The notes: generated by a model from the sequence alone, not told the origin. A DNA stretch of 47,825 bases from Candidatus Limnocylindrales bacterium (GCA_038252055.1 JBBSAS010000001.1:1-47825); one strand, 5' to 3'; counted from the first letter of the stretch, positions 3,931-28,025 are shown. Made by a program: numbers and translations.

Positions 3931-3933
3931 AGC

Positions 3934-8867: not shown

Positions 8868-8909
8868 ATGACCGAACGTCATGACGCGGCACGGGTGGGC
8901 CGGCACACT
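8868..8909 (+). promoter_or_regulatory. palindromic box module A (degenerate box ATGACCGAACGTCATGAC + N18 + CACACT)
   Basis: Member of the 8-copy family. Points at the hypothetical gene starting at 9020. Confidence 0.5.
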
Positions 8910-9019
8910 CGCGTCCACGCCCCGATCCGGGGATGCGATACGTGCGTCGTCTCGCGAGGCATTCGACCGATGGCCAGGCAGAAGCAGGGTAGAACCAGTT
9001 TCATGAGGATCCCCATCTG

Positions 9020-9436
9020 ATGCCGAGATTGCCCCGCCTCAACCGACTGGCAGCCCTCGCCGCGTTGCCGGCTGTGGGCGGGGTCCTCTCATCGACCGCG
9101 CGATCCGAGACCGCTCGAGACCTCGTGCGCAGAGGGGTGCGCGATCCGCGTGGTCTCGCCCGGTATCTGGCCCACCCTGCGACATCCATCGACCTGGTGC
9201 GACGAGCGAGCCAAGATCCCTCCGTGCGCGAACTGGTTAAGGCCGGTCTCCTGTTCACGCCCATTCGCTACTGGGCGATCGGTCAGGCCGCCATCTGGAG
9301 CGCCCGGAAGGTCGTCCGCCGCCCGCCCCGGGGCAGCCCCGCGGGACCACAGGTCCGGCCCGCTGTCCGGAATGTCACGCCGCCAGAGCGAACCGCAACG
9401 TTGAACCGTACTGACATCGGTGGGGGCTCTGAATGA
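9020..9436 (+). CDS. hypothetical protein
   Basis: ORF track. GAGGA lies 9 nt upstream of the ATG, codon usage is plausible, and I recognise no family. Confidence 0.45.
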   Translation: MPRLPRLNRLAALAALPAVGGVLSSTARSETARDLVRRGVRDPRGLARYLAHPATSIDLVRRASQDPSVRELVKAGLLFTPIRYWAIGQAAIWSARKVVRRPPRGSPAGPQVRPAVRNVTPPERTATLNRTDIGGGSE

Positions 9437-9695
9437 TCGGACTTCATCCGGCCTCGGTGGTCGCCCGTAACTGATGGTGGGCCCGCTCGGATGACGGACG
9501 AGGCTGTGAACGAATCCTGATCTGAAACGGTGAGGCCCTGACAGGTGACGGCCCCGGACACCTCGGCATGGTCACCGCGATCTTGAGATCAACCCGATCA
9601 CCCGCGCACCACGAGCGTCGGCGACACCCCACGCCGCGCCAACCCGCTGATCGCAGGCAAGCCCCGAAGGCGGCGCGTGCGGTGGCTCCGAGGCG

Positions 9696-9737
9696 ATGAC
9701 GAACCGTCATGACGCGGCGGTGTCGGGCCAACACACT
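9696..9737 (+). promoter_or_regulatory. palindromic box module B (ATGACGAACCGTCATGAC + N18 + CACACT)
   Basis: One mismatch to the consensus box. Points at the DUF5661-like gene. Confidence 0.55.
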
Positions 9738-9838
9738 GGCATCATGGTCCGTCCCTCGGGGACCCGGGAGGTCGCGTTTGAATGCGACCCGCACGTCGAT
9801 GCGCCACCGCCGGTCCCACGCAGCCGAAGGAGAATGTA

Positions 9839-10135
9839 GTGGGCACTGTCGATCTGGCCGCCAAGAAGGATTTCACGACCGATGAGGCGCGCGTCATCGC
9901 GGAGGAGCTCAAGATCGATTTCGAGGCCCTCGGGTGCGACCTCGACCAGTTCCGGATGGGGCTCGGCGTCGAGCTCGAACACGGGTCCCGCGACCCGGAG
10001 ACCGACGTCAGCCGCGACGATCCGATCGTCACCGGCAAGATCGCGCTCGCCCACCTGACGGAGTACCCGGACTACTACACGCGCCTGGCCGTCCTGGAAC
10101 GCGAGGCGGCTGCCCACAGGAAGGCGCAGAAGTAG
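9839..10135 (+). CDS. DUF5661-like small protein
   Basis: GTG 9839 preceded by GAAGGAGA. The sequence ...VELEHGSRDPETDVSRDDPIVTGKIALAHLTEYPDYYTRLAVLE resembles the family I recall as DUF5661 (from memory). Confidence 0.6.
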   Translation: MGTVDLAAKKDFTTDEARVIAEELKIDFEALGCDLDQFRMGLGVELEHGSRDPETDVSRDDPIVTGKIALAHLTEYPDYYTRLAVLEREAAAHRKAQK

Positions 10136-10136
10136 C

Positions 10137-10346
10137 GTGCGCGAAGATTCGCGACCGGCATGTATTGGTGGGCTGACGGCACGCTCGGGTTCGCGAGACG
10201 GCACGGACTTCAAGGACCAGGTCGGGAACGCCGGAGATGAGGCGCGCAAGGACCTCGGGAACCTGGGCGATGACGTCCGCACCGCGGGCCGTGAGCCGGA
10301 AGGTCCTCGGGACGACCCGGCCACGACGCCCGAGCGGCCGGCGTGA
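10137..10346 (+). CDS. small hydrophilic protein (start uncertain)
   Basis: The distal two thirds have about 88% third-position GC (DGTDFKDQVGNAGDEARKDLGNLGDDVRTAGRE...). It loosely resembles small general-stress proteins. The proximal part and the start codon are weak. Confidence 0.3.
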   Translation: MREDSRPACIGGLTARSGSRDGTDFKDQVGNAGDEARKDLGNLGDDVRTAGREPEGPRDDPATTPERPA

Positions 10347-10378
10347 AGCCGTCAACACGGACCCAAGTCGGAGATAGC

Positions 10379-10579
10379 ATGCCGTCAGAACCGCCTCAGG
10401 TCATCGTCATCAAGAAGGGCGACGACCACGGCTGCATCATTACCTTGCTCCTGGCGATCATCGCCTGGCCGCTCGCGGTCTTGTACCTCGTCATTCGAGC
10501 GGTGAAGTGGGTGATCGGGACAGGGATCGACTGGCTGACCCTGGGACCGCTTCGTCGTCGGCGCCGTCCGCGGTACTGA
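10379..10579 (+). CDS. small membrane protein (66 aa)
   Basis: ATG 10379 with GGAGA 4 nt upstream (short spacing). MPSEPPQVIVIKKGDDHGCIITLLLAIIAWPLAVLYLVIRAVKWVIG... has one or two TM helices and an RRRRRPRY tail. Confidence 0.55.
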   Translation: MPSEPPQVIVIKKGDDHGCIITLLLAIIAWPLAVLYLVIRAVKWVIGTGIDWLTLGPLRRRRRPRY

Positions 10580-10605
10580 TGGCACCGGGCTGAGCCGATG
10601 CCGGT

Positions 10606-11817: not shown

Positions 11818-12294
11818 TCAGGTCGCTGGCGAAGCTGCCGTGTCCGGTGCGGCATGAGCTGATGGTCCTCGGTCACGACGTGCTCGCAGCGCACGAGGTG
11901 CAACGGGTCGCGCCTGGCTGATGACGATGGCGCGGGCGAGAAGCTCCTCGGGCGAGAAGGGCATCGTCAGGATGTCGTCGACGCCGAGATCGAAGGCCCG
12001 CAACTTCGTCTTGAGGCTACTCCATCGGGTGAGCCCGAGGACCGGCGTCCCGCTCCGCTTGAGGCTGTTCGAGGCTCCCAGCAACTTGAGCAGCGCCCTG
12101 CTGTCGTCGTGGTCCATGTCGACCACGGACATGTTGGGCGACCACTGGGCCACGATCGCCTTCGCCTCGGCGAGGTTGCTCGCAGCCCGGACGACAAAGG
12201 GGCCGAGAGTGAGCGTCAGCGTGATGAGGCCTACGGCGAGAGGGCGATCGTGGAGCACGAGCACCCGGCGTGCTTCGACTGACGGTGCGCTCAC
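11818..12294 (-). CDS. receiver-domain-only, 3'-truncated paralogue of the atypical OmpR-family regulator at 26939-27721 (possibly a pseudogene)
   Basis: GTG 12294 gives VSAPSVEARRVLVLHDRPLAVGLITLTL...DDILTMPFSPEELLARAIV. It matches the other copy at roughly 85% by eye at nucleotide level. Homology stops near 11900-11925, and the wHTH output domain is missing. Confidence 0.5.
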   Translation of the reverse strand: MSAPSVEARRVLVLHDRPLAVGLITLTLTLGPFVVRAASNLAEAKAIVAQWSPNMSVVDMDHDDSRALLKLLGASNSLKRSGTPVLGLTRWSSLKTKLRAFDLGVDDILTMPFSPEELLARAIVISQARPVAPRALRARRDRGPSAHAAPDTAASPAT

Positions 12295-12472: not shown

Positions 12473-12514
12473 AGTGTTTCGTCTCGAGGCTGCTGTGTCA
12501 TGACGGTCCGTCAT
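12473..12514 (-). promoter_or_regulatory. palindromic box module C (perfect box + N18 + AACACT)
   Basis: Points at the truncated regulator gene (start 12294). Confidence 0.6.
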
Positions 12515-12671: not shown

Positions 12672-12713
12672 ATGACGGACCGTCATGACGGACCGACGGT
12701 GGGCCGAGATACT
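12672..12713 (+). promoter_or_regulatory. palindromic box module D (perfect box + N18 + GATACT)
   Basis: Points at the 29-aa peptide gene and the Zn peptidase. Confidence 0.6.
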
Positions 12714-12819: not shown

Positions 12820-12909
12820 ATGAACGCAAGAAGCGGTGGCATTGGGATCATCGGCGTGATCGTCATCGTCGTGGTGATCCTCTTCCTGGTCGGCGTCATC
12901 AAGGTGTGA
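12820..12909 (+). CDS. 29-aa hydrophobic mini-protein
   Basis: MNARSGGIGIIGVIVIVVVILFLVGVIKV. AGGAGA lies 5 nt upstream of the ATG, and third positions are GC-rich. Below the ORF-track size cut-off. Confidence 0.5.
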   Translation: MNARSGGIGIIGVIVIVVVILFLVGVIKV

Positions 12910-13029
12910 GTCCCAGGGTTGAGTGCGTCCTCGCTCACCCTGAGATCACCCGATTCCGGTCCGCGCCTCGATCGCGCCGATTGATCGTTGGATCGAGGCA
13001 TCGTGTGGCGCCCGCGGGAGGCTCGCGAG

Positions 13030-13923
13030 ATGTCGTTCAACCCGGGCGCGAAGCTCGATCCATCGCAGGTCGAGGACGTCCGCGGGTCGCGGGTCGGGGG
13101 GCGCGGCCTGGCCGCCGGCGGCGGTGGGATCGCGATCATCGTGACCCTCGTGTGGGTCCTCCTGGGTGGCAGCCCGACGACCGGCGGGACACTGGGCAGC
13201 CTGGTCGACCAGACGATCGGTGGCGGCGCTGGCGAGCCCGGGCCCGCCAGCAGCGCCCTGGCCAACGAGTGCAAGACCGGGGCCGACGCCAACGCCGGAG
13301 AGGACTGCCGGATCGTCGGCTACGTCAACAGCATCCAGGCCTACTGGACTGACGAGTTCGCCGCCAGGGATCAGCGCTACGTCGGGGCCAGGACCCGCTT
13401 CTTCACCGAGCAGATCAGCACCGGCTGCGGCGTCGCGTCGTCGGCCAGCGGTCCGTTCTACTGCCCGAGCGACACCTACGTCTACATCGATCTTGGGTTC
13501 TTCGACGAGCTGCGCTCGACGTTCGGCGCCCAGGGAGGCCCGTTCGCGCAGGCCTACATCCTCGCCCACGAGTACGGGCACCACGTCCAGGATCTTGGCG
13601 GAACGCTGTCAGGCGGGACCAGCCAGGAAGGGCAGGCCGGGCAGTCGGTCCGGACCGAGCTCCAGGCCGACTGCTACGCCGGCGTCTGGGCGAGCCACGC
13701 GGCCGCGACGGGCTACCTCGTGAAGCTCACGGACGCGGAGATCGCCGATGCCCTTGATGCGGCGGCCGCCGTTGGCGACGACCGGATCCAGCAGGAGATG
13801 CAGGGCCAGGTCAACCCAGAGACTTGGACGCATGGCTCGTCCGCCCAGCGCCAGAAATGGTTCACGGTCGGCTACCAGACGGGGTCGCCGGACCATTGCG
13901 ACACGTTCAGCGGCAACCCCTGA
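13030..13923 (+). CDS. neutral zinc metallopeptidase (YpfJ family)
   Basis: [19 protein letters not shown] start, one TM segment, and the HExxH motif [10 protein letters not shown]. The C-terminal part is family-like. Confidence 0.8.
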
Positions 13924-14549: not shown

Positions 14550-14609
14550 GAAAGCTCCTGGATCGGACGCCAGAAGCGGATGCGTCAGGGCCGCACCCCC
14601 GAGGCGCTC

Positions 14610-15216: not shown

Positions 15217-15483
15217 TCAGCGGCGGAGAAGACCACGCGAACCGGTCGCGAGATGCACCACGAAGACGACCGCGATCGCGCCGAGCGTGGCGATCACGAT
15301 GCTCTCGATGTTGATCCCATCGACGGTGCCCATCTTGAGCACGGTCGCGGCGACGTACCCGCCCACGAGGCCGCCGACGATGCCGAGAACGACCATCATC
15401 AGCAGGCCCTCACGTGCGCGCATGACCTTGCTGGCCAGGAAGCCGGCGATGGCGCCGACGACGATCCAGGAGATGAAGCCCAT
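15217..15483 (-). CDS. GlsB/YeaQ/YmgE-family stress-response membrane protein
   Basis: MGFISWIVVGAIAGFLASKVM...GIVGGLVGG, the typical transglycosylase-associated family pattern. GGAAGGAA is the RBS. Confidence 0.8.
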   Translation of the reverse strand: MGFISWIVVGAIAGFLASKVMRAREGLLMMVVLGIVGGLVGGYVAATVLKMGTVDGINIESIVIATLGAIAVVFVVHLATGSRGLLRR

Positions 15484-15587
15484 TGCAGGCGTTCCTTCCG
15501 TGACGCGCGGCCCACCCTGGGCCGACGCGGTCCGCGGACGAGGCCCCGTCCGCCGAGGGACCGCGACCACGCGGTCAGGTGCTGGGG

Positions 15588-16022
15588 TCAGGCCGGCTCG
15601 CGCCGGAAGATCCCGACGGCCCAGATCACGATCAGCTCGAGGACCGTCCAGCCGATGAATGCCAGGATGGCGGCGAGATCGAGCACCGAACCGCCCTTCG
15701 CGAGGTAGTCCTGGTTCAGGATGCCGTTGAACGGCGCGATGAAGACCTGGCTGACATCCAGGATGCCCCTGACGAGCGCGTTGCCCGTGCGGGCATCGAG
15801 GAGGAGCAGGACGATCCGCAGCCCGATGACGATCTGGATGAGCCCGAACACCAAGACGATGATCCGGCGGGTCAGTTCCGAGCCGCCGGGGCCTGGCCGC
15901 GTGATCTGCCGGCTGTCCGTCCGGGCCGACTCCTGGACCGGGGCCGCTGGCTGCGTCGCCTGGACCGGGGCCGCCGGGGACCCTTGGGTGTCGACCGTAC
16001 GGTCGACGTGGTCGATGGGCAT
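15588..16022 (-). CDS. YggT-family membrane protein with a disordered N-terminus
   Basis: ATG 16022 preceded by AAGGAGA. The C-terminal half RIIVLVFGLIQIVIGLRIVLLLLDA...VFIAPFNGIL...LAAILAFIGWTVLELI is YggT-like. Confidence 0.7.
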   Translation of the reverse strand: MPIDHVDRTVDTQGSPAAPVQATQPAAPVQESARTDSRQITRPGPGGSELTRRIIVLVFGLIQIVIGLRIVLLLLDARTGNALVRGILDVSQVFIAPFNGILNQDYLAKGGSVLDLAAILAFIGWTVLELIVIWAVGIFRREPA

Positions 16023-16177: not shown

Positions 16178-16219
16178 ACTGTGTGCCAAGCAACCCTGTG
16201 CGTCATGACGGTCCGTCAT
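16178..16219 (-). promoter_or_regulatory. palindromic box module F (perfect box + N18 + CACAGT)
   Basis: Points at the yggT-like/glsB-like pair. Confidence 0.6.
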
Positions 16220-16382: not shown

Positions 16383-19300
16383 TCAGATGTAGATCTCGAC
16401 GAGGTTCTCGCCCCCGGTCAGCTCGTCCGTGAAGCGGTCCCTGGAGATCAGCATGCCGCCCCTTCGATAGGGGTTCTCCGAGTGCCGGCCGCCCGGCATC
16501 GGATGCCCGTTGACCCGAACCTCGTCCGGCGAGAATCCCTTCCCCGCCACGTGGTAGAGGTAGCGGACCCGCCTGGACTCGTACTCGAAATCGAACGTCA
16601 GCCCATCGAGGGCGGTCGGCAGCACCGGGTCCAGCAGCACGTCGTCGAAGTGCTCGCGCAGCCCGAGGACGTTCGAGATCAGTTGGTTCACGTAGATCCC
16701 GGGGCCGCTCGAGTAGATCCGCCAGCCGCCCTTCACGCCCACCGCGCCCGTCCGGATGCGGCCGAACTGCCGGCTCGCTTCGTAGCGGTCCGCGAACGCC
16801 GCGTCGGACGAGCTGAAGTAGCAGTTCGCCTGCCTGGGCAGGGCCGACGGCACGCTCCGTTCCAGGGCGACCGGACACACGACGAGAAGGCCCGCGACAG
16901 CCTCCTCGGGCCGGCCGACCCTCGCCATCGCCTCCACGTACCGGATGTGCGCGTGAACGTACTGCAGCCCGACCTCTCGCCCGAAGGACGCTGCCGTCTC
17001 GGCCCGCTTGAAGTAGCGCTCCGTTCCGCCCCGGTACTCCATCGGACGGTTCATCAGCCGCACGCCGTCGGGAAACGAGAGGTGACGCCCGATGACTGCC
17101 AGGTGCCGCCGAGCCTGGTCCGGCGTGAGGAGGCCACTGATCATGCCCCTGGTCATCGGGAGCAGCCGGTACGAGACGCCGGTCTTCCGATCGCGCGGGT
17201 GGAGGAAGTACTCGATGCCCTCGGCGGCGAAGTGCGCCAGCCCTGCGACGACGCCTTCCTTCACGAGATGGCGGTCGAAGTCGGCACGAATGCGCTCGCA
17301 CCAGCCGGCGAGACGCCCGGCGAGCGCGTCCTCCCCGGCGCGCTCGCAGACCTGCCGGAAACGGCTCAGGGTCTGGAACGCGAGCTCTACCGTCCACGAG
17401 CTCACCAGGCGCTGAGCCATCGCCGGATCCGCCGGCTGCAGGGTGTCCTCCCAGTCGCCGTGGCCGTAGGCGACCAGTGCCGTACCCGGGATGCAGCTCG
17501 CCTCGATTCGGGCGAGCTGCCGCTCCACGTGGGCGAGGAGGCTCTCGGTGTCCGCGGTCGCGGTCATCGTCCGCTCGTCCGTGTAGGCGACCTCCTCGGC
17601 CAGGACCGCAACGTCGCCCGTGGCCTCGACGTAGTCGCACAGCGCTTTCAGCGGCCAGTGGACGATGTCGCCATGGCTCTCGGGCGACTGGACCGCGCGG
17701 TACCGGTCGAACATGAACCACTGGGGCCAGTCGCCGGTCTGCCGGTACTGGTGCGCGTAGACGATCTTGAGGACCTCCCGGAGCTCCGCGTGGTGGCGGG
17801 TAGCGAGAAGGAGCTCGACGGGACCCTGGCAGGCGTCGCGGAGTCCCCACGCCGCCCCGCTGTACTGCTCCAGCCCGTGCGGCGCGAGGTAGTGGACCAT
17901 CGCGTTCTGCAGGTACCAGGGCAGGAGGTCGTTCAGCCGGGCCACGTCCTTGGCCCGCAGTCCGCTCACCCCGCCGAGCGCGGCACCTCGGGCGACGCCC
18001 GCCCAGAAGTCCGCCGCGTCGCGCTGCGCCATCGCCTGCGGGTACTCCTCGCGGCCGTACCGGTCGGCCAGCTGCCTCGCCCGCTGCGCGCTGACCACGC
18101 TGCCGGTGAGGGCCAGGGAGAACCTCGTCACCGGCTTCGTCCTGACGACGACCTGCGCCTGGCCCCGGCCGGCTCCGTCGGCGTAGAGCAGGCCGTCGCC
18201 GCCGATGGTGTCGATCTCGTCCGCATCGCGTGACACGAGGAAGAACGTCGCCTCCGGGTACTCCCGGGACATCGGCCCGCCGGCGGCGGGGGTCAGCTCC
18301 ACGCGCCGGCTGACCTCATCGATCGACACGCGCGCGGTGGACTCGTATTCGTTGGTGCCGAGGACGACGTCGTGGGTGATCAGCAGCGCGAGCGGGCCGC
18401 CCGCCTCCACGCCGACCTCGAGGAAGAACGCCGGATCGTCCAGGGCCGTCCAGGCGCGGACGACGATCGTGTGCTCGCCGTCCTGGTAGACCCAGCGCGC
18501 GCTGCTCGCGTCCATCTCGAAGGCCGAGGGGACGCCCAGGAGTTCGAGGCCTCGGTCGGTCCTGGCGAAGATCCGCTGACCGCTCGCCTTGAGGACGTTC
18601 AGCGGGTTGCGGCACACGCTGAGGATCTTGTTGAACGACGTGTTGCCGACCGCAAGCTGAGAGGCGAAGACGCCGAACATCCAGGCGGTGGTGGACAGGA
18701 TGTCGTCGTTCGGGAGCATGTCCCGCCCGGAACGAAGGATGTGGCCGGTGGGGCGCTCCACGAGGAGCTCCTTCGCCCGCAGGACGACGTGGGCCTGGCG
18801 CCCGTGGAAGAAGGACAGGAGCCGCCCGTCGCGCTCCTCGACGTGCCGCCACTCCGAGCCGAAATGGCGCTCCAGCTCGGCCCCGGAGAGGTCCCGGCTG
18901 GCGAACAGGGTGGGCGCGTCGAAGACGCCGGCGGCGCAGGGGATGGGCGCCGTTGCCGTGGCCTCCGGCGGGAGCCGCCGGAACGTCCGAGCCGCGGCTC
19001 GGGCTTCCCTGGCGTCCCCCGGACCCGACGCGCCGGCGTGGTCGGCCAGGTAGGCGCCGAAGAACGTGATCTCCGCGGCCTCGCCGGGGCGGACGCGAAT
19101 CCTCCGGCTCTGCAGCGTCGGCAACGCGAGCTCGTACTGGTACCGCCGGTTCGGGAGCATCCGGCGGGCAAGCGCCGCGGGCATGTTCGTCGCTTTGTAG
19201 TCGAGGCCGTAGAGCTGGAAGCCGTCGGTGAGGAACCCGACAGAGCCGCCGAGGCAGCCGTGCATCAGCCAGGGATGGGTGCCGCCCTGGGACAGGTTCT

Positions 19301-19826
19301 GGCGGGAGCAGACGAGGTACCCGAAGTGGGCGTCCTCGAGGATCGTGTGGTCGATGTACTGGCTCGTGTACAGCTCGCTGCTTCGAACGGCGGCCTCCTG
19401 GGCGAGGCCGAGATCCTGGGCGAGGACGGCATCGACGGACCGGGGCCTCGACGCGTTGTTGACGATCCGGATCGTCCAGAACCAGTCGGATCGTCTCGCG
19501 GCCAGGCGGAGCGTGCACGAGTAGCGCAGCCCGTCGTGGGTCCCCTCCCAGCACGCCGCGTCGGCAGTCGTCCGAAGGCGGCCACCTGCCGGTCCGAGCA
19601 ACGGCGCCCACGCGACCCGCCCGGCGCGGTGGGTTCGCAGGTAGATGTTGCCCAGCCCGCCCTCGACCGGGCTGCCGAGGACCTGGTTGACCAGGATCTC
19701 GCCGTGACGGATGGCGTGGACGGCGCCGTTGTCCAGCAGCTGGAACACGAGCCCGCGCTCGTTCTTCAGCTCCACTCCGACGGGGCCGTGGCCAGCCCGA
19801 ATGCGGCGCCTCGCGCGTGCAGTCAC
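16383..19826 (-). CDS. GH94-like glycan phosphorylase (cellobiose/1,2-beta-oligoglucan phosphorylase superfamily), 1147 aa
   Basis: Only this frame gives non-shadow protein sequence. Size and sequence style match about 1100-aa GH94/COG3459 enzymes. Catalytic residues not verified. Confidence 0.65.
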   Translation of the reverse strand: MTARARRRIRAGHGPVGVELKNERGLVFQLLDNGAVHAIRHGEILVNQVLGSPVEGGLGNIYLRTHRAGRVAWAPLLGPAGGRLRTTADAACWEGTHDGLRYSCTLRLAARRSDWFWTIRIVNNASRPRSVDAVLAQDLGLAQEAAVRSSELYTSQYIDHTILEDAHFGYLVCSRQNLSQGGTHPWLMHGCLGGSVGFLTDGFQLYGLDYKATNMPAALARRMLPNRRYQYELALPTLQSRRIRVRPGEAAEITFFGAYLADHAGASGPGDAREARAAARTFRRLPPEATATAPIPCAAGVFDAPTLFASRDLSGAELERHFGSEWRHVEERDGRLLSFFHGRQAHVVLRAKELLVERPTGHILRSGRDMLPNDDILSTTAWMFGVFASQLAVGNTSFNKILSVCRNPLNVLKASGQRIFARTDRGLELLGVPSAFEMDASSARWVYQDGEHTIVVRAWTALDDPAFFLEVGVEAGGPLALLITHDVVLGTNEYESTARVSIDEVSRRVELTPAAGGPMSREYPEATFFLVSRDADEIDTIGGDGLLYADGAGRGQAQVVVRTKPVTRFSLALTGSVVSAQRARQLADRYGREEYPQAMAQRDAADFWAGVARGAALGGVSGLRAKDVARLNDLLPWYLQNAMVHYLAPHGLEQYSGAAWGLRDACQGPVELLLATRHHAELREVLKIVYAHQYRQTGDWPQWFMFDRYRAVQSPESHGDIVHWPLKALCDYVEATGDVAVLAEEVAYTDERTMTATADTESLLAHVERQLARIEASCIPGTALVAYGHGDWEDTLQPADPAMAQRLVSSWTVELAFQTLSRFRQVCERAGEDALAGRLAGWCERIRADFDRHLVKEGVVAGLAHFAAEGIEYFLHPRDRKTGVSYRLLPMTRGMISGLLTPDQARRHLAVIGRHLSFPDGVRLMNRPMEYRGGTERYFKRAETAASFGREVGLQYVHAHIRYVEAMARVGRPEEAVAGLLVVCPVALERSVPSALPRQANCYFSSSDAAFADRYEASRQFGRIRTGAVGVKGGWRIYSSGPGIYVNQLISNVLGLREHFDDVLLDPVLPTALDGLTFDFEYESRRVRYLYHVAGKGFSPDEVRVNGHPMPGGRHSENPYRRGGMLISRDRFTDELTGGENLVEIYI

Positions 19827-21712
19827 GCGATCGGCACCAGCTCGATGAGCGAGATCGCGGGCATCGGCAGGTCGAACACGATCTCGAGACGGCCGTCCTC
19901 GACGGGCCCGGGAGCGGGTGGCTCCAGCAGCTCGAGCCGATCGGCAGCGTGGAGCTCGGCCCAGCCCGCCTCGTCCGGCCAGGCCGGGCAGCCGAGGTGC
20001 TCCCAGGCGCGGGCAATGTTCGAGTGATCGTGGTCCACACGATGATGGCGCAGCTCGTAGCGCACCCCGGCGCCCAGGCCCTGGACCATCAGGGACACTG
20101 ATCGGTCAAGCTGCGGATCTCCGTTGGCCTTCGACGGGTCGAGCGTCCCGTTCCAGACAGCGATCGCGACCCGCCCGTCGGGAGCGCGGGAGGCCCAGGC
20201 CTCGACGAGCGATCCGCCGCCGTCCCCGTCGACGGCGCAGTCGACCTCGTGGGCGCCGAGCCGCTCGAGCATCGCGATCGCCCAGAAGCGCGGCTTTCGA
20301 AGGTTGCCGATCGTGAGGAGGCCGAACCCGCCGTGGAACAGGGACGCTGCATCGCCGAGCTCGACGAACTGGTCCGACGCGACCCAGTACGACAGCGCCT
20401 CGATGCGACCCGCCGCCGAGCGCATGCCCCGCGCGACGAGCGGCGCGCCCCAGACGCTGTCGTTGATCGGCGCCGAGTGGGTCGGGCTCACGCCCCACTC
20501 CGTCCACCAGAGGGGCAGGTCCGGCCGCCCGAACCGTGCCGTGATCGGTCGCAGGTCGAGCGGTGGCAGCCCGTAGGCATGGCTCGAGACGAAGTCGATC
20601 GGCACGTCGCGGGACGTGCAGAAGTCGAGCAGATCGTCGACCCAGGCGGCCGCCGCGGTGGCCGGCCCGCCCACGCGGAACCGCTCGTCGACCCCCTTCA
20701 CCGCCCGGACGGTGACCTCGTACAGCCGCAGGTAGTCCGACTCGGCTGCCGTCCAGAAGGCCCGCAGGTTCGCTTCGTTCCAGACCTCGAATGCCCACTG
20801 GCCAACGGCGTCGTGGCCGTACCGCTCGGCAAGGTGGCGGACGAGATCGCGAACGAGGCTCGCCCACTGCTCGTGGTCGCGCGGGGGCGAGATGATGCCC
20901 CTGTAGTCGAACACGGTCTCGCCGGGATCGATCGCGAGGGCGGCCGGCATGAACGACAGCTCGACGATGGGACGGAGGCCGGCCGCGAGGACCCGATCCA
21001 CCACGAGATCGACCTTCGTGAAGTCGTGGACCACCTGGCCGTCCTCGAGGCGGCATACGCCGAGCGAGTCGAGGAAGATCCCGTGCGCCCGGACCGCCTC
21101 CACGCCGAGCTCGATCCGGGCGATGCGAAGCGCCTCGGCCAGCTCGCTGCCGACGTCGCGTCCGCCCGGTCCGGCGCCTCGAAGGAGGAGGGCGAGATGC
21201 TCCGAGCCGATCATCGGCCGCCACGGGCGCGCGAGCGGACCGCGGACCTCCGCCGCGTCCACCCGGACGGAGACCCGGCCGTTGTCGTTGCCCGGCTTCG
21301 CCTCGACCGGCGGCGAGAGGGCCAGCGACTCCGCCTCGATGTTCGCGAGGCTCGCCACGGCGTACCAGGCAGCGTCCGGGCCGGCAGCGGTCGTGTCGAG
21401 ATACGGTCCGTGGGGGACGGCCAGGACGTCTCCGCCGTGCTGGTCGACGGGCTCGAATGGCCCGTCCCTGGTCGAAGCGCGGTGAACGAGGTAGCCGGCC
21501 GCCCCCTCGACCGGCGACCACGTGATCGTGACGTGCCCACGTCCGCGTTCCGCGCGCACGTCGGCGGGGGCCGGAAGCCGCAGGTCGGCAGCAGCTGCGT
21601 CGCGCTCGTTCTGGGTGCCGACGGCGGCGAACCAGGCGATGCGCGCCGAGCCGCTGACCGGCTCGAGCTGTTCCTCGGCGGGCGGTTCAGTCACCCGCGC
21701 TCCGGCCTTCAC
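19823..21712 (-). CDS. GH39-like glycoside hydrolase with an N-terminal Fn3-like module
   Basis: FEVWNEANL (acid/base NE motif) and LWWTEWG (nucleophile Glu) in a TIM-barrel context. A 4-nt overlap with the downstream phosphorylase gene. Confidence 0.7.
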   Translation of the reverse strand: MKAGARVTEPPAEEQLEPVSGSARIAWFAAVGTQNERDAAAADLRLPAPADVRAERGRGHVTITWSPVEGAAGYLVHRASTRDGPFEPVDQHGGDVLAVPHGPYLDTTAAGPDAAWYAVASLANIEAESLALSPPVEAKPGNDNGRVSVRVDAAEVRGPLARPWRPMIGSEHLALLLRGAGPGGRDVGSELAEALRIARIELGVEAVRAHGIFLDSLGVCRLEDGQVVHDFTKVDLVVDRVLAAGLRPIVELSFMPAALAIDPGETVFDYRGIISPPRDHEQWASLVRDLVRHLAERYGHDAVGQWAFEVWNEANLRAFWTAAESDYLRLYEVTVRAVKGVDERFRVGGPATAAAAWVDDLLDFCTSRDVPIDFVSSHAYGLPPLDLRPITARFGRPDLPLWWTEWGVSPTHSAPINDSVWGAPLVARGMRSAAGRIEALSYWVASDQFVELGDAASLFHGGFGLLTIGNLRKPRFWAIAMLERLGAHEVDCAVDGDGGGSLVEAWASRAPDGRVAIAVWNGTLDPSKANGDPQLDRSVSLMVQGLGAGVRYELRHHRVDHDHSNIARAWEHLGCPAWPDEAGWAELHAADRLELLEPPAPGPVEDGRLEIVFDLPMPAISLIELVPIA

Positions 21713-21719
21713 GCCCGCC

Positions 21720-23258
21720 CTACGGCTTATCGACCCGCGCGGCGCGGTCCCGCGGTCCGGCGTTGAACTCCTCCATCGAGATGATGGGTTGGAGCGCCCG
21801 CTTGACCCCCTTCGTCGCGAACGCCCGCCGGAGCACGTCGTGGTCGAGCTCGTTCCCGATCGCGGCCATGACGATTCCCTGGTCCAGCGACAGGTAGGAA
21901 TCCGAGACGACGCCCGTCTGGACGTTCACCGAGTCCCGGAAGCCCCACTTGCCGTAGATCGCGAAGTCATTCTCGAGATTGGCCAGGTTCGCGAGGACCG
22001 CCTTGGGCGCCCAGCGGAGGGCGAGGAAGGACGCGTGAGGCGTCACGACGCCGTTCGTGTAGGCCGACGGGGCCGGGTCGGGCTTCGGGTCGCGGCAGCC
22101 CGAGAACCCGGGGTCCACGAACGTCAGGTCCTCGTTCGACGGATAGCCGTCCGGGTTCATGCCGAGGGCATCGACCCCGTACTCGTGGTAGCCGCCTTCC
22201 GGGATGTTGGCCGGGGAGAAGCCCCAGTAGCCGTAGCCGGCGTCCACGAGCCCGTGGTGGATCTGGGCCTCAACCGTCAGGGGATGGTTGATCGCCCAGC
22301 TCTGCGGCCCCCACTTCTCCTCGGGGACGAACAGCGCCGGCATGAGTGCCTCGAACATGCTGCCGCCCCATCCCGGGACGATGCGCATCCCGTCGTACGG
22401 GTAGGCGCCCTCGAAGACGGTCACGCCGAGGTAGGTCCGGTCGAAGCCGACGGGCCTGATCTCCTGCCAGTCCCAGTCACAGCTGCCGGGGAAGGCCGGG
22501 AAGGTCCGCCAGGCACCGAAGTACTCCCTGGCGGGGATCTCCCCGGTGGCGATGCCGATGTAGCTCGCGATCCGGCTCTCGCTCACGATCGTGTCGTAGC
22601 AGCAGGGTGACTCGCCGGTATCCGGCGCGACGTGGAAGGCGATCCGGTTAACCTCCGGCCGGTAGTAGAACCCGAAGTGCATGCTGTCGAAGAGCGCCCC
22701 GGCGCGTGCGGCGACCTCCGGCACGCTGTTCTCGACGACCTGCAGGGCAGCCGCGAGCCAGCCGTTGTCCACCGACGAGAGGATCGGGGTCATCGCGTCG
22801 CCGGTCGAGGGCCAGACCGTCAGCTTGGCCCCCGTCCGGTGGTCGTACCAGTTGTAGAACTGGCCGCCGGGGTAGTAGCGCTCCATCTTCTCGAGCGAGT
22901 GGAGGGTGAGGCGAAGCCGCGTGACCGCCTCTTTGTGGCCGATGATCCGGAGCCCCTCCGCGACGACGGTGCTCCACATGTAGGCGCCGATGTTCGTCGT
23001 GGACGTCTGGACGCTCGTCGTGCCGTCGGAGGCGAGACTGTCGGCGGGCAGCCCGCTCTTCGGATCTGTCATCGCGACGAGCGACGCCCACGTGTCCCTG
23101 GCGTAACGGCGCAGGGTCTGCCGCTGCTCGCTCGAGCGAGGCGATACCCCGGCGCCGGCCGGCTCTGCGGCCGTCGCGAACGGCGGCAGGAGGAGGGCCG
23201 CGACGACGAGCCCGGCGAGGAGGGTGAGGGGCCGCTGCGCGCGGCCGTGCCTGAGCAT
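21720..23258 (-). CDS. secreted DUF3131/glucoamylase-like glycoside hydrolase (putative beta-1,2-glucanase-type)
   Basis: Signal peptide MLRHGRAQRPLTLLAGLVVAALLLPPFATAAEP. Blocks GGSMFEALMPALF, GYWGFSPA, WGFRDSVN, LSLDQGIVMAAIGN are typical of that family (from memory). Confidence 0.65.
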   Translation of the reverse strand: MLRHGRAQRPLTLLAGLVVAALLLPPFATAAEPAGAGVSPRSSEQRQTLRRYARDTWASLVAMTDPKSGLPADSLASDGTTSVQTSTTNIGAYMWSTVVAEGLRIIGHKEAVTRLRLTLHSLEKMERYYPGGQFYNWYDHRTGAKLTVWPSTGDAMTPILSSVDNGWLAAALQVVENSVPEVAARAGALFDSMHFGFYYRPEVNRIAFHVAPDTGESPCCYDTIVSESRIASYIGIATGEIPAREYFGAWRTFPAFPGSCDWDWQEIRPVGFDRTYLGVTVFEGAYPYDGMRIVPGWGGSMFEALMPALFVPEEKWGPQSWAINHPLTVEAQIHHGLVDAGYGYWGFSPANIPEGGYHEYGVDALGMNPDGYPSNEDLTFVDPGFSGCRDPKPDPAPSAYTNGVVTPHASFLALRWAPKAVLANLANLENDFAIYGKWGFRDSVNVQTGVVSDSYLSLDQGIVMAAIGNELDHDVLRRAFATKGVKRALQPIISMEEFNAGPRDRAARVDKP

Positions 23259-23310
23259 GGCGAACCTCCATGTGGCGGAGCGCCCAGGCGCCCCTCGATC
23301 GGATGACGGA

Positions 23311-24186
23311 TCAGCCCTTGAGGCCGGTGGAGGCGATGCCCTCGGTGATGAAGCGCTGGAAGATGATGAAGACGATCAACACGGGCACCACGAGGATGAC
23401 CGAGCCTGCCATCAGCATCCCGTGGTCTGCCTGGTACTGGCCCGTCGCGAACGTCGCGAGGGCGACCGGCAGCGTGTACATGCCCGGCTCCTGGGCCATG
23501 ACCAGCGGGTAGATGAAGCTGTTCCAGTTGCCGAGGAACGTGAGAATCGCGAGCGTGGCCAGGACCGGCATGGCGATCGGCACGACGATCGCCCAGTAGA
23601 GGTGGAACTCGTTCGCTCCGTCGATGCGCGCCGCCTCGAGCAACTCGTCCGGCACGCCGAACATGAACTGGCGCATGAGGAAGACGCCGAACGCTCCGGC
23701 GAGGAACGGCAAGATCAGGCCCGGGTAGGTGTTCACGAACCCGAGGGAGCTCAACAGGATGAAGTTCGGGATGAGCGTGATCCCGGCCGGCACCATGAGC
23801 GTGGCCAGGACGAGGCCCATGACCGCCCGCTTGCCGCGCCACCGGAGCTTGGCGAGCGCGTAGCCGAGCATCGGGCAGAAGACGAGGTTCCCGACCGTCA
23901 CCGCCAGGGCGACGACCGACGAGTTGAAGAAGAAGCGCGGGAAGTCGAGCTGATCGAAGAGCCTCCCGTAGTTGTCCATCGTCGGGGTCGAGGGCAGGAA
24001 CGTCGGCGGGATGCGGAGGAAGTCGGCCTGGGGCTTGAGCGAGCCGAGGACCATCCACAGGAACGGCCCGACCATGAGCACGAGCCCACCGATGAGCAGG
24101 GCGTAGATCCACAGGTGCGACCGCGTCCGGCCGCCCGCCGCAGCGGGGCTGACCTGGGCCGGAGTGCCGGCAGGTACAGCAGTCAT
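23311..24186 (-). CDS. carbohydrate ABC transporter permease (MalG-like)
   Basis: Six-TM permease with an EAA-like loop (ELLEAARIDGANEF). Confidence 0.85.
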   Translation of the reverse strand: MTAVPAGTPAQVSPAAAGGRTRSHLWIYALLIGGLVLMVGPFLWMVLGSLKPQADFLRIPPTFLPSTPTMDNYGRLFDQLDFPRFFFNSSVVALAVTVGNLVFCPMLGYALAKLRWRGKRAVMGLVLATLMVPAGITLIPNFILLSSLGFVNTYPGLILPFLAGAFGVFLMRQFMFGVPDELLEAARIDGANEFHLYWAIVVPIAMPVLATLAILTFLGNWNSFIYPLVMAQEPGMYTLPVALATFATGQYQADHGMLMAGSVILVVPVLIVFIIFQRFITEGIASTGLKG

Positions 24187-24199
24187 CGAGCCACCTCCC

Positions 24200-25138
24200 T
24201 CACGTGTCCGAGCGGAGGAACTTGAACTGGAGGAAGGCGATGAAGGCGACGATGACGAAGAGGACGTAGGCGATCGCCGAGGCGTAGCCCTGGTGGAAGA
24301 AGGTGAAACCCTGCTGGTACATGTACATCGTGACCGAGAGTGTCGAGTCCAGCGGCCCGCCGCCGGTCATGACGAACGGCTCCTCGAACAACTGCAGGTA
24401 GCCGATCGTGGTGATCACCGTCATGAAGAGGATCGTGGGCCGGAGCATCGGGATGGTGATGTACCGGAAGGACTGCCGGGAGCTGGCCCCGTCGATCGCG
24501 GCCGCTTCGTACAGGGATGACGGGATGGCCTGCAGGCCGGCCAGGAAGACGATCATCGCGAACCCGAGGTTGCGCCAGACGGCCATGGCGATGATCGAGG
24601 GCATCGCGAAGACCGGGTCGGCCAGCCAGGCCGGTCCGGTGATGCCCAGGCCGCCGAGCAGCATGTTGATCAGCCCGACGTCCGGGTTCAGGAGGAATCG
24701 CCAGACGACCGCGATGGCGACGATGCTGGTGATGACCGGCAGGTAGTACCCGACCCGGAAGGCCGTGCGGAAGCGAGAGATCCCGCGGTTCAGCGCCGTC
24801 GCGATCACCAGGCCGATGGCGAGCGTCACCGGCACGCCGATGACGACGAAGTAGAAGGTGTTGAACAGCGACTTCCAGAACGTCTCGTCACTGAGCAGGG
24901 CGAGGTAGTTATCGACGCCGACGAAGGCCGCCCCGATCGGGTTGGCTAGGTCCCTCAGGCCGAAGCTCGTGAAGCTCAGGACGAACGAGGCGAGGATCGG
25001 GAAAGCAAGGAAGACGACGTACAGGATCATGAACGGGGCGGCGAACGCCCAGCCGGTGAGGTCGTCCCGCCAGCCCCGGCCGGGGGCGGCCGGGGCCGCC
25101 CCCGCGACATTGCGCCGGGCAAGCGCAGGAACAGTCAT
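24200..25138 (-). CDS. carbohydrate ABC transporter permease (MalF-like)
   Basis: Polytopic permease with an EAA loop (LYEAAAIDGASSRQSF). Confidence 0.85.
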   Translation of the reverse strand: MTVPALARRNVAGAAPAAPGRGWRDDLTGWAFAAPFMILYVVFLAFPILASFVLSFTSFGLRDLANPIGAAFVGVDNYLALLSDETFWKSLFNTFYFVVIGVPVTLAIGLVIATALNRGISRFRTAFRVGYYLPVITSIVAIAVVWRFLLNPDVGLINMLLGGLGITGPAWLADPVFAMPSIIAMAVWRNLGFAMIVFLAGLQAIPSSLYEAAAIDGASSRQSFRYITIPMLRPTILFMTVITTIGYLQLFEEPFVMTGGGPLDSTLSVTMYMYQQGFTFFHQGYASAIAYVLFVIVAFIAFLQFKFLRSDT

Positions 25139-25139
25139 G

Positions 25140-26474
25140 TCAGCTGCCCGCCCCGATCCTCTCGGCCTCCTGCTGCATCAAGTCCGCAGTGGCCTGCGGG
25201 TCCAGGCCGCCGGTCGTCATCTTCTCGAGCGCGCTGTTGAGCGCGGTGCCCAACTCGCTCCACGTCGAGATCGCCGGCTGTGCCTTGGTGTCCTTGAGCT
25301 GCTCGCCGAACAAGGCGACGTTCTTGTCGCCCGCGAGCGCCGGGTCGTCCCAGGCGGACTGGACGGCCGGGAGGTCGCCGACCTCGCCGTACCAGGCGAC
25401 CTGCGTCGCCGGATCGGATAGGTATTGGACGAACGCCCAGGCGGCGTCCTTGTTCTTGCTCTCCTTGAACACGACGAGGTTGCTGCCACCGACGAACGAG
25501 GTCGCGCTGACCTTCTTCGGCATCGGTGCGATCGCCCACTTGTCTTCGAAGCCGGCGCCGCCGGCCTCCTTGATGAGGGCCAGGTGCCACGGCCCCGAGA
25601 AGAACATCGGGTGCGTGCCGGCCACGAAGGCGGGCGTGATGTCGAAGCCTTCCTGAACCGACTTCGGGGACAGGCCCTCGGTGAAGAACGAGTTGTAGTA
25701 GGTCAGGGCCTCTACGGCCTGCGGGCTGTTCAGCTGGAACGCGCCCTGCGCGTCCATGACGTCCCCGCCGGCCGACCACAGGAACGGCAGGTACTCCTGC
25801 CAGTTCTTCGTGCCCAGCGAGAGGCCCCAGTCCGCGCCGCCCTTGGACTGCATCGCCTTGGCCATCGCCGTGAGGTCGTCCCACGTCGCGGGTGGCGTGG
25901 TGATGCCGGCCTTCTCGGCGACGTCGGTGCGGTAGTAGAGGACCCTGGTCTCCACGTACCAGGGCACGCCGGACACCGTCCCGTTGACGACGTTCGTGTT
26001 CCAGGCGCTCTCGAAGAAGGTAGCCGGCGCGAAGTTGGCGGGGACGGCTTCCAGAGTTCCGGTGGCCGCGAACTGGCCCATCATGTCGGTGCCCATCTGG
26101 CTGATGTCGGGCGTCTGATTGCCGGCGATCGCGGTCTGGAGCTTCGCGACGGCCTGGCCCCAGTCGACTGGCGTCACGTTAACGGTGACGTCCGGGTTGT
26201 CCTTCATGAAGGCGTCGGCAAGGCCCTTGAGCTTCACGCCCTCGTTGCCCATCGCCCACACCGTCAGCGTACCGCTGATCGAGCCCGCCGGGCTCACGGC
26301 CGGCGCCTGACTGGCGGCCGGCGCCTGGCCGGCCGATCCGCCGGGCGCGGCGCTGCCCGAGTTCGTACCGCAACTCGCGACCATGAGGGCGATGCCGGCG
26401 AGCATGGCGCCGATCCAGAGTGGACTTCCCCGCGCCCGGTTGCTCCCGCGGGAAGTCGGTAGAGATTGCGACAT
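25140..26474 (-). CDS. ABC transporter extracellular sugar-binding lipoprotein
   Basis: Lipobox-like LMVASCGT and a family-1 solute-binding pattern. First gene of the minus-strand operon. Confidence 0.85.
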   Translation of the reverse strand: MSQSLPTSRGSNRARGSPLWIGAMLAGIALMVASCGTNSGSAAPGGSAGQAPAASQAPAVSPAGSISGTLTVWAMGNEGVKLKGLADAFMKDNPDVTVNVTPVDWGQAVAKLQTAIAGNQTPDISQMGTDMMGQFAATGTLEAVPANFAPATFFESAWNTNVVNGTVSGVPWYVETRVLYYRTDVAEKAGITTPPATWDDLTAMAKAMQSKGGADWGLSLGTKNWQEYLPFLWSAGGDVMDAQGAFQLNSPQAVEALTYYNSFFTEGLSPKSVQEGFDITPAFVAGTHPMFFSGPWHLALIKEAGGAGFEDKWAIAPMPKKVSATSFVGGSNLVVFKESKNKDAAWAFVQYLSDPATQVAWYGEVGDLPAVQSAWDDPALAGDKNVALFGEQLKDTKAQPAISTWSELGTALNSALEKMTTGGLDPQATADLMQQEAERIGAGS

Positions 26475-26628
26475 CTCCGTTCTCCTCTGCAGCTGGCCGC
26501 AACTCGCCCATCTGGCGAACGCGACTGGGGAAAGGCTGTGACGGCCCTAGCTAGCTAGCCTCGGTCCGTGGACCTCCTCGTTCACTCCGCCTGCCACATC
26601 CGGATGCGCTTCGAGAGGGGCACGGGCG

Positions 26629-26670
26629 AGTCTCTCGCCTCGACACGACCACGTCATGACGGTCCGTCAT
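26629..26670 (-). promoter_or_regulatory. palindromic box module G (perfect box + N18 + GAGACT)
   Basis: Points at the sugar ABC/glycoside hydrolase operon (start 26474). Confidence 0.6.
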
Positions 26671-26938
26671 GAGGCACGCCTCGGCGATGCGCGAAGGCGC
26701 CCGGCCAATCCAGCCCCGGACGCGATCTACCGCCATGTCGGGCGGTCGCACGCGGCGCGAGCGCGCTCCCCGGGGCGCACCTGCCCGGCATGGCCGCGCG
26801 TCTCGCGGTCAGCCCCGCGGGGACACCGCGTGTTGCCGCTCGCGAGCCCGCCGGCGACGGGCGATGTCCCGGCGTCGCTCGGTGGCGCGGGTGTTCGCCC
26901 GGTCCTCCCCGTCAACCCGCCCGGCCGCAGGCACCGGG

Positions 26939-27721
26939 TTAGTGACGCCGACCCTCGCCCGCACCCTCGTCGCCGGCCCAGCCCGTGTTCGAGAACGTCG
27001 GGATGAACCGGTAGCCCCGCCCCGGGACCGTGGCGATGAAGCGCGGATGGCGGTAATCGTCCTGGAGCTTGACGCGCAGGCCGCGGATGTGGCGATCCAC
27101 GACGTTGCTCTCGGACACGAAGTCGGTGCCCCAGATGGCGTCCAGGATCTCGTCGCGCGTGACCACCTGGCCGGCGCGGCTCGCCAGCAGGTACAGGAGG
27201 CTCTGCTCGATGCCGCTCAGGTGGATGACCGAGGTGCCGGCCCGTACCTCGCGATTGAGAATGTCGATCTCCATCTCGCCCAGCCTGATCGTGGGGATGA
27301 TCGGGTGTTCGCGTCCGGTCGCGCGGCGAGTGAGGACGATGGCCCGGGCGAGCAGCTCCTCGGGCGAGAAGGGCACCGTCAGGATGTCGTCCACGCCCAG
27401 GTCGAATGCTTTGAGCTTGGTCTTGAGGTCGCCCCGACGAGTCAGACCGAGCACTGGCGTGGGGACCCGAGTCAGCTGGTTCGCGGCGCCGAGCCGCCCG
27501 AGCAGCGTCGTGCTGTCGTCGTGATCCATGTCGACCACGGCCATGTCTGGGTGCCAGTCGGCCAGGATCGTCTCCGCGTCGGCCAGGCTGCTGGCGGCCC
27601 GAACGACGAACACGCCGTGGTTGAGGGTCAGGGTGACGAGGTCCACCACGAGCGCGTGATCGTGCAACACGAGCGCGTGGCGCGCCGCGACTTCCGGGGC
27701 TGTCATCTGACTGTCGGTCAT
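26939..27721 (-). CDS. orphan OmpR-family response regulator with an atypical receiver
   Basis: The wHTH C-terminus (VVDRHIRGLRVKL...IATVPGRGYRF) is intact. In the receiver, the acidic pair is HD instead of (D/E)D, and the conserved Lys of KPF is Val (TVPF). The acceptor Asp (VVDMD) and Thr (GLT) are retained. No kinase gene is adjacent. Confidence 0.8.
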   Translation of the reverse strand: MTDSQMTAPEVAARHALVLHDHALVVDLVTLTLNHGVFVVRAASSLADAETILADWHPDMAVVDMDHDDSTTLLGRLGAANQLTRVPTPVLGLTRRGDLKTKLKAFDLGVDDILTVPFSPEELLARAIVLTRRATGREHPIIPTIRLGEMEIDILNREVRAGTSVIHLSGIEQSLLYLLASRAGQVVTRDEILDAIWGTDFVSESNVVDRHIRGLRVKLQDDYRHPRFIATVPGRGYRFIPTFSNTGWAGDEGAGEGRRH

Positions 27722-28007
27722 GACTCGTCCTCACTAGGGCAGCGCCCCGGCGGCGTGCCCGGGGTGATGTTACGACGGGGCGCCTCACTCGCGTTCGTTC
27801 GTGGCGTGCCCCGGAGCTCGTCGACCCCGACCGGCGGCGGGCTCGGGGCGGGCGAATGGCCGACCCTTTCTGCCGGAGTCGGGTGAGACCGTCTCGAGCT
27901 CCGACAAGGACATCCCGGGGGCGCATGGTCAACGGGCTCAGGTTGCGCGACGGCACCCCGCTACGCGGTGGCGGAAGCTCGGCGCTGACTGACATGGAGC
28001 GCTCCGA

Positions 28008-28025
28008 GTCATGACGGTCCGTCAT
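28008..28025 (-). promoter_or_regulatory. palindromic box H (perfect 18-mer, no -10-like hexamer at the family spacing)
   Basis: Lies 287 nt upstream of the regulator start at 27721 and 286 nt upstream of osmC. Box only. Confidence 0.45.

Follow-up and report, generated by a model that had tools for sequence, protein, structure and literature searches.

The element described here was found in a 47,825-nucleotide (nt) stretch of DNA from a Candidatus Limnocylindrales bacterium (GCA_038252055.1 JBBSAS010000001.1:1-47825; this whole stretch is referred to as the window) and consists of a short palindromic box followed at a fixed distance by a hexamer resembling a -10 promoter element. The palindrome is probably the part of a promoter module to which a regulator binds. 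This module is conserved in uncultured soil Chloroflexota, in at least 67 species, and is clade-wide across Limnocylindria-type Chloroflexota and not local. The system is probably an operator-promoter regulon whose regulator would be an atypical OmpR-type protein using an inverted repeat. In the explanation that we favour, to which a probability of roughly 0.6 is assigned, the orphan OmpR-type regulator encoded at 26939-27721 would bind the dyad as a symmetric dimer and activate transcription at composite promoters. Each of these would comprise a 15-base-pair (bp) dyad (ATGAC-N5-GTCAT), a -35-like element (aTGACr), a 17-nt spacer and a weak -10 element (nAnAcT). On the dyad the regulator would form a head-to-head dimer with two-fold symmetry and contact RNA polymerase at the adjoining sub-optimal -35/-10, thereby switching the promoter on, and one dyad would be able to serve two divergent promoters.

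Examination of the source genome covered this 47.8-kb contig, which has a G+C content of about 70%. A search with the 15-mer ATGACGGACCGTCAT on both strands, allowing up to two mismatches, returned matches at exactly eight places (8868, 9696, 12500, 12672, 14825, 16205, 26656, and 28011), equivalent to 15 strand-readings, whereas 100 dinucleotide-preserving shuffles averaged 0.17 and never exceeded 2. Six of the eight copies are the perfect 18-mer ATGACGGACCGTCATGAC, and in the degenerate copies at 8868 and 9696 the variation is confined to the central five bases. In seven copies an nAnAnT hexamer lies exactly 18 nt 3' of the GAC that ends the box (CACACT twice, AACACT, GATACT, CACATT, CACAGT, and GAGACT); at 28008-28025 such a hexamer is missing in both orientations. 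All copies are intergenic when genes are called from third-position G+C content and Pfam matches, and relaxed scans (up to three core mismatches, hexamer at offset 17-19) yielded no extra module in the 47.8 kb, with 0.3 in shuffles. An earlier note, made from the sequence alone, had reported these eight boxes with their positions and orientations, the division into six perfect and two degenerate copies, the seven hexamers and the box-only site at 28008, the intergenic placement and the lack of copies in the rest of the window, all of which were recovered (0.17 boxes being expected by chance). Its description of the element as confined to 8.8-28 kb and marking a local regulon is true of the contig only, the element being clade-wide in Chloroflexota.

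The wider distribution was established with an exact-match scan for ATGACGGNCCGTCATGAC in one genome per species, which gave at least 119 loci; locus counts given below are among the matches listed, and box-selected loci are the 8-kb stretches around these exact matches (individual loci are designated by L and a number). Metagenome-assembled genomes (MAGs) of Chloroflexota account for 90 of the 119 loci, from 67 assemblies, many of them labelled Candidatus Limnocylindrales or Limnocylindria, and deposits from other phyla for 29. Of the loci listed, those closest to the window, L087 and L034, come from Limnocylindrales MAGs. Among the 102 unique Chloroflexota sites listed, the nAnAnT hexamer is found at offset 18 in 58, at 17 in 4, at 19 in 3, at 16 in 2, and at any remaining offset in at most one. 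Of the listed exact boxes outside Chloroflexota (Streptomyces, proteobacteria, and others), 2 of 31 are accompanied by the hexamer; the exact boxes in these taxa are chance matches. The proposal that the element combines a box with a fixed-distance -10 is therefore strengthened by the same geometry in at least 67 species, 18 being essentially the sole offset. Phylogenetic footprinting in relatives, suggested earlier as a check, was performed on 14 orthologous promoters of a YggT-like gene: conservation is restricted to the box, A.ACT, a GGA ribosome-binding site and the ATG, while spacer and leader have drifted, and the start of this gene in the window was set at 16022 because of the footprint. 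Relative to the direction of the promoter, the central base of the dyad (box position 8) is asymmetric, with A at 48, G at 23, C at 17 and T at 14 of the listed Chloroflexota sites.

A dispersed repeat without regulatory role, of the repetitive extragenic palindrome (REP) or miniature inverted-repeat transposable element (MITE) kind, could likewise appear as a short perfect palindrome in many intergenic copies. The earlier note had named mostly intragenic or randomly oriented copies as the mark of such a repeat; none of the 102 listed Chloroflexota sites lies within a clear coding frame, orientation is fixed with respect to the downstream genes and the -10 stands at one exact offset. Furthermore, the flanks are not conserved and the same orthologous genes carry the box in at least 67 species. 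This explanation is refuted by the comparative data.

The modules of the window and the genes associated with them are given below; the genes downstream of the boxes were found as named in the earlier note.

8868..8909, + strand: promoter module 1, degenerate box ATGACCGAACGTCATGAC, 18 nt, CACACT; precedes the hypothetical gene 9020-9436
9020-9436: hypothetical gene; orthologues in 8 of the listed box-selected loci
9696..9737, + strand: promoter module 2, box ATGACGAACCGTCATGAC, 18 nt, CACACT; precedes the DUF5661 gene 9782-10135
11818..12294, - strand: receiver-only truncated regulator paralogue, 61% identity to the full-length copy
12473..12514, - strand: promoter module 3, perfect box, 18 nt, AACACT; precedes the receiver-only paralogue
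12672..12713, + strand: promoter module 4, perfect double-ended box (GTC on left), 18 nt, GATACT; precedes the 29-residue peptide and the Zn peptidase
12820..12909, + strand: 29-residue hydrophobic peptide MNARSGGIGIIGVIVIVVVILFLVGVIKV; tblastn homologues in 16 loci
12988..13923, + strand: Zn metallopeptidase, PF04228 (E = 3.9e-70); orthologues in L007, L035, L040, and L051
14610..14702, - strand: 30-residue hydrophobic peptide MSFETIVIVVVIVLIVLFILGYFGRGRLRG; homologues in 8 loci, including a called 29-residue gene in L122
14798..14839, - strand: promoter module 5, perfect box, 18 nt, CACATT; precedes the 30-residue peptide
15217..16022, - strand: YggT-like membrane protein (15588-16022), then Transgly_assoc/GlsB-like protein (15217-15570), both from Pfam; start 16022 set by footprint
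16178..16219, - strand: promoter module 6, perfect box, 18 nt, CACAGT; precedes the YggT-like/GlsB-like pair; footprint of 14 orthologous promoters
16383..26474, - strand: sugar operon encoding a solute-binding protein, two permeases, a Glycoamylase/DUF3131-domain protein (GH144-like), GH39, and SOGP (beta-1,2-oligoglucan phosphorylase)
26629..26670, - strand: promoter module 7, perfect box, 18 nt, GAGACT; precedes this beta-1,2-glucan uptake/degradation operon
26939..27721, - strand: orphan atypical OmpR/PhoB-family response regulator (pseudo-receiver and winged helix), candidate box binder
28008..28025, - strand: box-only site, no -10 hexamer, 287 nt upstream of the regulator gene; adjoins an OsmC-domain gene

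By box position, the dyad occupies positions 1-15, with half-site centres 10 bp apart, the aTGACr element positions 14-19 and the hexamer positions 37-42, with a 17-nt spacer between the latter two. The -35-like element, which shares 2 bp with the dyad, matches the consensus at 4 of 6 positions. With a start of transcription about 7 nt past the hexamer, the dyad would span about -48 to -34 with its centre at about -41; relative to this inferred start, the two hemi-sites are about one helical turn apart and overlap the -35 region. The -10 positions that matter most to sigma-70-type recognition are A2 and T6, and because A at position 2 and T at position 6 are the best conserved (81 and 84 of the 102 listed sites, compared with 64 for A at position 4 and 72 for C at position 5) the hexamer has the likeness of a sigma-70-type -10; the 17-nt spacer is also present. 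However, T at position 1 is avoided (4 of the 102 listed Chloroflexota sites) and no module in the window qualifies in a sigma-70 consensus scan with a 9/12 cut-off. In contrast, the tRNA gene of the window is preceded by TGcTATTCT.

The element can be regarded as a dyad operator fused to a weak promoter, and not as a mere -35/-10 pair, because the distal half-site is conserved and double-ended sites exist. The distal half is retained as ATGAC or ATTAC in loci picked without reference to the box. Double-ended sites (GTCATGACGGnCCGTCATGAC) are present in L070 (736-756), L055 (6324-6344), and the window (12669-12689, GTCATGACGGACCGTCATGAC); in L070 and L055 the hexamer lies at +18 on each side, giving divergent promoters around one dyad, and in the window it lies on the + side only. 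These data bear on the possibility that an alternative sigma factor recognizes GTCATGAC-N18-nAnAcT as its -35/-10, in which case the palindrome's left half would be incidental. The avoidance of T1 and the preference for C at position 5 (72 of 102 listed) are unlike a textbook housekeeping -10 and would agree with it, as would a sigma-70-family gene that is itself box-driven in one locus (L098). Nevertheless, this alternative is very unlikely considering that loci that were not box-selected keep the distal half-site 9-13 bp upstream of the -35, that in one clade this half changes symmetrically with the proximal one, that double-ended bidirectional sites occur, and that no sigma-factor gene recurs among the listed box-rich loci.

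The earlier note had singled out the regulator at 26939-27721 as a candidate binder, and it has proved to be the only DNA-binding protein consistently linked to the boxes. Its orthologues (66-85% identity) are encoded inside 36 of the 119 listed box-selected loci, none of these 36 being among the 29 listed loci from other phyla. Conversely, all seven loci chosen by the regulator protein alone carry the core box and hexamer on the regulator's strand (shuffles 0), five of them at 17-253 nt past the stop codon and the others at about 1.4 kb (L126) and 2.5 kb (L122). In 16 metagenome contigs chosen by a regulator protein pattern alone (orthologues of 72-79% identity), a box with at most two core mismatches lies within 450 nt downstream of the regulator in 13, and 137 nt upstream of it in L167, giving 14 of 16 contigs with a nearby box; L153 has no box within 450 nt on either side, and the L162 contig offers no sequence beyond the regulator gene. 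In addition, a regulator clade at 47-53% identity carries Asn, and the orthologues Ser or Gly, at residue 214, which aligns with PhoB Arg201; this arginine makes a base-specific contact in PhoB (PMC3973317). In the boxes of this clade TTCAT replaces GTCAT, the change being symmetric in three loci (ATGAAGAAACTTCAT), and GAC and the hexamer still follow. Variant boxes of the form ATGA(A/C)-N5-TTCATGAC with hexamers occur in L131 (1919, 3044), L134 (2367, 3488), L137 (3534, 4655), L136 (104), L138 (4334, 4867), L140 (4934), and L146 (1946). This apparent covariation between the Arg201-aligned residue and the box variant, which differs at box positions 5 and 11, is suggestive only.

Another dimeric factor might bind the dyad, either a Crp/Fnr-like neighbour or a protein encoded elsewhere, with the OmpR-type gene as a syntenic neighbour or regulon member. 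The module resembles class II CRP/FNR promoters in that the dyad is centred at about -41, the classic class II position, over a weak -35, and in that a single dimer site can serve divergent promoters; moreover, an HTH_Crp_2 protein adjoins the regulator in L061, L104, L113, L121, L122, and L123, and the visible part of the source genome amounts to 47.8 kb. Known CRP/FNR sites are evenly spaced (5-N4-5 or 5-N6-5), whereas the box has an odd N5 spacing, and the regulator linked to it is a member of the OmpR family. A Crp-like gene occurs nearby only sporadically, in 6 loci, 4 of them among the 119 listed box-selected loci, against 36 for the regulator; the window contains none despite its eight boxes, and the box variant follows the OmpR-type clade. 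Binding by another factor is thus quite improbable, and the Crp-like neighbour in particular was rejected as too sporadic and missing from the window. The Crp/Fnr-like genes are located at 1929-2627 in L113, 9125-9827 (frameshifted) in L121, 17626-18327 in L122 and 9125-9826 in L123, with partial copies in L061 and L104; they are divergent from the regulator in L113, L121, and L123.

The regulator has a PF00072 receiver (E = 1.8e-10) and a PF00486 Trans_reg_C domain (E = 8.5e-24). It aligns over its full length with RpaA, Mycobacterium tuberculosis PhoP and Escherichia coli PhoB (31% identity over the full length for the latter), RpaA being the best solved relative, and gives only sub-threshold matches to generic OmpR-family models in NCBIfam. 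In the receiver pocket E9 is replaced by His and K105 by Val or Met (Val in the window copy), D53 and T83 are retained, and the beta3-alpha3 loop is shorter by two residues than in RpaA and by one than in PhoB. His20 and the loss of the Lys are common to all 34 sequences aligned, the Asp adjoining His20 is almost invariant, and relatives down to 37% identity are also without the conserved Lys. At E of 1e-30 or below the family of atypical regulators comprises 209 clusters. The regulator is without the complete active-site quintet for phosphotransfer (DD, D, T, K); its receiver falls under the published definition of a pseudo-receiver (PMC12632262), which makes the protein an atypical response regulator, and for this reason it probably acts without canonical phosphorylation. 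No histidine kinase adjoins the regulator gene in the window or in L120-L126, the nearest lying 6-9 kb off (L121, L123). An ordinary pair of histidine kinase and OmpR-type regulator is encoded at 32253-34422 (-) of the window; this regulator is 33% identical to the atypical one, and the pair is without a box.

The same module and regulator could also operate by repression, the protein bound to the dyad occluding the -35 and stress releasing it. The overlap of 2 bp between the dyad and the -35-like hexamer is compatible with this mode of action, and pure operators could account for the box-only site at 28008 as well as for the boxes next to the regulator gene. If the embedded TGAC is the -35, fixed spacing is trivial and hence uninformative on activation versus repression. 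Repression is nonetheless considered unlikely. The core elements are conserved in a weak form (T1 in 4 of 102 listed sites; -35 matching at 4 of 6 positions), which is atypical for repressed promoters, and operators usually vary in position whereas a single register is seen here. Besides, HP1043 and actinobacterial GlnR, the two well-studied orphan OmpR-type atypical regulators that a literature search brought up, are described as activators, GlnR in the title of its paper. Activation by the OmpR-type regulator is favoured because conservation has preserved a weak core promoter, the register does not vary, and one dyad can serve two divergent promoters.

Several points weigh against binding and activation by this regulator. 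The whole case rests on sequence and synteny, and the scan of the source genome was limited to the 47.8-kb contig. OmpR/PhoB regulators normally bind direct repeats, so that a perfect inverted repeat is unusual in the family, and none of the four base-contacting residues of PhoB is retained in the regulator. The adjacency of box and regulator might only reflect the position of the gene beside a core member of the regulon, a module pointing at the regulator gene itself is rare, and the covariation described above amounts to essentially one evolutionary change. Fixed spacing would be expected under a repressor model too, TGAC being part of the repeat.

It had also been suggested that the two regulator paralogues carry the box upstream of themselves. 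This holds for the truncated copy, which is preceded by a full module: it keeps the motifs LVLHDR, DMDHDD, GLTR, and TMPF, its DNA-binding domain is lost and its box promoter is complete. It does not extend to full-length regulators in general, as only 15 of 38 copies (the two of the window included) have a box within 350 nt upstream, the GAC end points away in 11, and the site at 28008 lacks a -10. On these counts positive autoregulation of the full-length regulator was rejected as a general feature. A box-driven second paralogue is truncated in the window and full-length in L102 (about 1395-2175, 66% identical), which suggests that such a paralogue provides feedback. Duplication of the regulator is recurrent, as in L122 there are two copies (10001-10783 and 16638-17423) that are 95% identical.

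By analogy, the closest precedent for the proposed mechanism appears to be HP1043 (HsrA) of Helicobacter pylori, an orphan, phosphorylation-independent activator of the OmpR family that recognizes two hexamers 5 bp apart (PMC8345958). Its sites (TTTAAG-N5-CTTAAA) lie over the promoter between -26 and -42, and a head-to-head dimer has been modelled (PMC8345958). Both proteins are orphan OmpR/PhoB-family regulators with a degenerate receiver and hemi-sites 5 bp apart over the promoter, binding being a prediction for the regulator described here. They differ in recognition sequence, phylum and regulon, HP1043 controlling essential housekeeping genes, and orthology between them is unlikely. The halves of the HP1043 site are unequal and allow a reading as either direct or inverted repeat; the dyad of the module, in contrast, is a perfect palindrome without such ambiguity, located one turn farther upstream (about -48 to -34). 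The pho box resembles the module in that a winged-helix response regulator recruits RNA polymerase at or over a poor -35 and the half-site contains GTCA. In contrast, PhoB binds head-to-tail direct repeats (CTGTCAT, 11-bp spacing), needs phosphorylation and has a partner kinase, while the receiver of the present regulator is without the conserved Lys and first acidic residue and its base-contact positions read Val for T194, Arg for V197, Gly or Ser for R201, and Pro for R219. With all four PhoB base-contact residues replaced, the resemblance to the pho box (GTCAT versus TGTCA) was given no weight. Likewise, TGAC-N5-GTCA fits the loose TNAC-N5-GTNA pattern of BldD boxes, a parallel drawn in the earlier note; this is a trivial match to a pattern too degenerate to weigh, the host is a Chloroflexota MAG, and no BldD-like protein was seen among the approximately 35 window proteins scanned, without a dedicated search.

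The genes associated with the module point to a common physiological theme. In the listed box-rich loci the commonest are those for a YggT-like membrane protein (about 30 loci) and Transgly_assoc/GlsB (27), the locus counts behind the genes of the YggT-like/GlsB-like pair being 31, 29, and 27; CsbD-like, DUF1269-like, PRC-barrel, and Nramp genes are also recurrent. Pfam analysis of the first genes downstream of the boxes, for which the calling of open reading frames was crude and noisy and which was used for family counts only, adds Ice_binding-like, DUF4177, Ni-superoxide dismutase, FMN reductase, Cupin, DUF1775, IclR, a PAS protein, a sigma-70-family protein, DUF5661, and the Zn peptidase. 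The peptides of 29 residues (16 loci) and 30 residues (8 loci) are conserved small membrane proteins according to tblastn; their consensus sequences (MNxRxGGVGIIGVIVIVVVILFLVGVI and xSFExIVIVVVIVLIVLFVLGYFGRGR) correspond to single-helix proteins, usually encoded directly 3' of a box. The sugar operon is box-driven in L011, L068, and L125 as well. Giant Glycoamylase-GH94 proteins (1823-2887 residues) are encoded beside the regulator in L121 (265-5826), L123 (271-8934), and L125 (1082-6553); together with the box-driven glucan operon, these proteins, which resemble cyclic beta-1,2-glucan synthases, hint at an osmoprotectant theme. In L098 a sigma-70-family protein (Sigma70_r1_2) is encoded from about 4444 onward, directly 3' of a box with hexamer CATTCT, and this box-driven gene may form part of a regulatory cascade.

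The gene set is like those of general or osmotic stress regulons of other phyla, and judging from gene content the module looks like the head of a general-stress-like regulon. The earlier proposal of one dimeric regulator for a clustered stress, membrane and glycan regulon agrees with the recurrent families and with the box-driven glucan operon in the three additional loci; what does not stand is the clustered, local character. General stress regulons are placed under alternative sigma factors in other bacteria, namely SigB in Firmicutes and Actinobacteria and EcfG/PhyR in Alphaproteobacteria. These regulons share with the present one CsbD, GlsB/YmgE-type Transgly_assoc, PRC-barrel, OsmC, DUF1269, superoxide dismutase, and small membrane proteins, but here a transcription-factor dyad precedes a housekeeping-like -10 in place of a sigma-specific -35/-10. 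A more far-reaching scenario, which we regard as possible but doubtful, is that Limnocylindria-type Chloroflexota run their general (osmotic/desiccation) stress response through one orphan pseudo-receiver OmpR-family regulator and not through an alternative sigma factor. In it the protein would bind head-to-head on a perfect inverted repeat placed as at class II promoters. The acidic pocket with its His substitutions (H20 and H67 invariant, Lys lost) would sense a signal directly (e.g., metal, pH, or a small ligand) or respond to a partner protein, and the box-driven paralogue would provide feedback.

Limnocylindria and their relatives, uncultured Chloroflexota abundant in soil and freshwater, are bacteria in which, to our knowledge, virtually nothing is known about gene regulation, and a literature search on the motif or on gene regulation in Limnocylindria found nothing relevant. 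The motif provides a high-confidence clade-wide regulon of more than 100 promoters as well as a candidate master regulator that can be tested in vitro without cultivation. If an OmpR-type pseudo-receiver protein does bind it, inverted-repeat, symmetric recognition in this family would be much clearer than for HP1043, and a general-stress programme would be built on a transcription-factor operator instead of a dedicated sigma factor. The module can be used to annotate promoters and small membrane-protein genes in these MAGs and may help to read soil metatranscriptomes from drying/rewetting experiments.

An Rfam scan of the whole window detected tRNA only, with no known RNA family in the 90-170-nt leaders, and terminator-like sites in the window occur at chance frequency. 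Immediately upstream of the first box lies a tRNA-adjoining stretch (3260-8026) with the appearance of a defence island, containing the tRNA gene (3260-3331, +), an AbiEi antitoxin-like gene (3934-4719), and a TOTE-type AEP primase-helicase gene (5528-8026).

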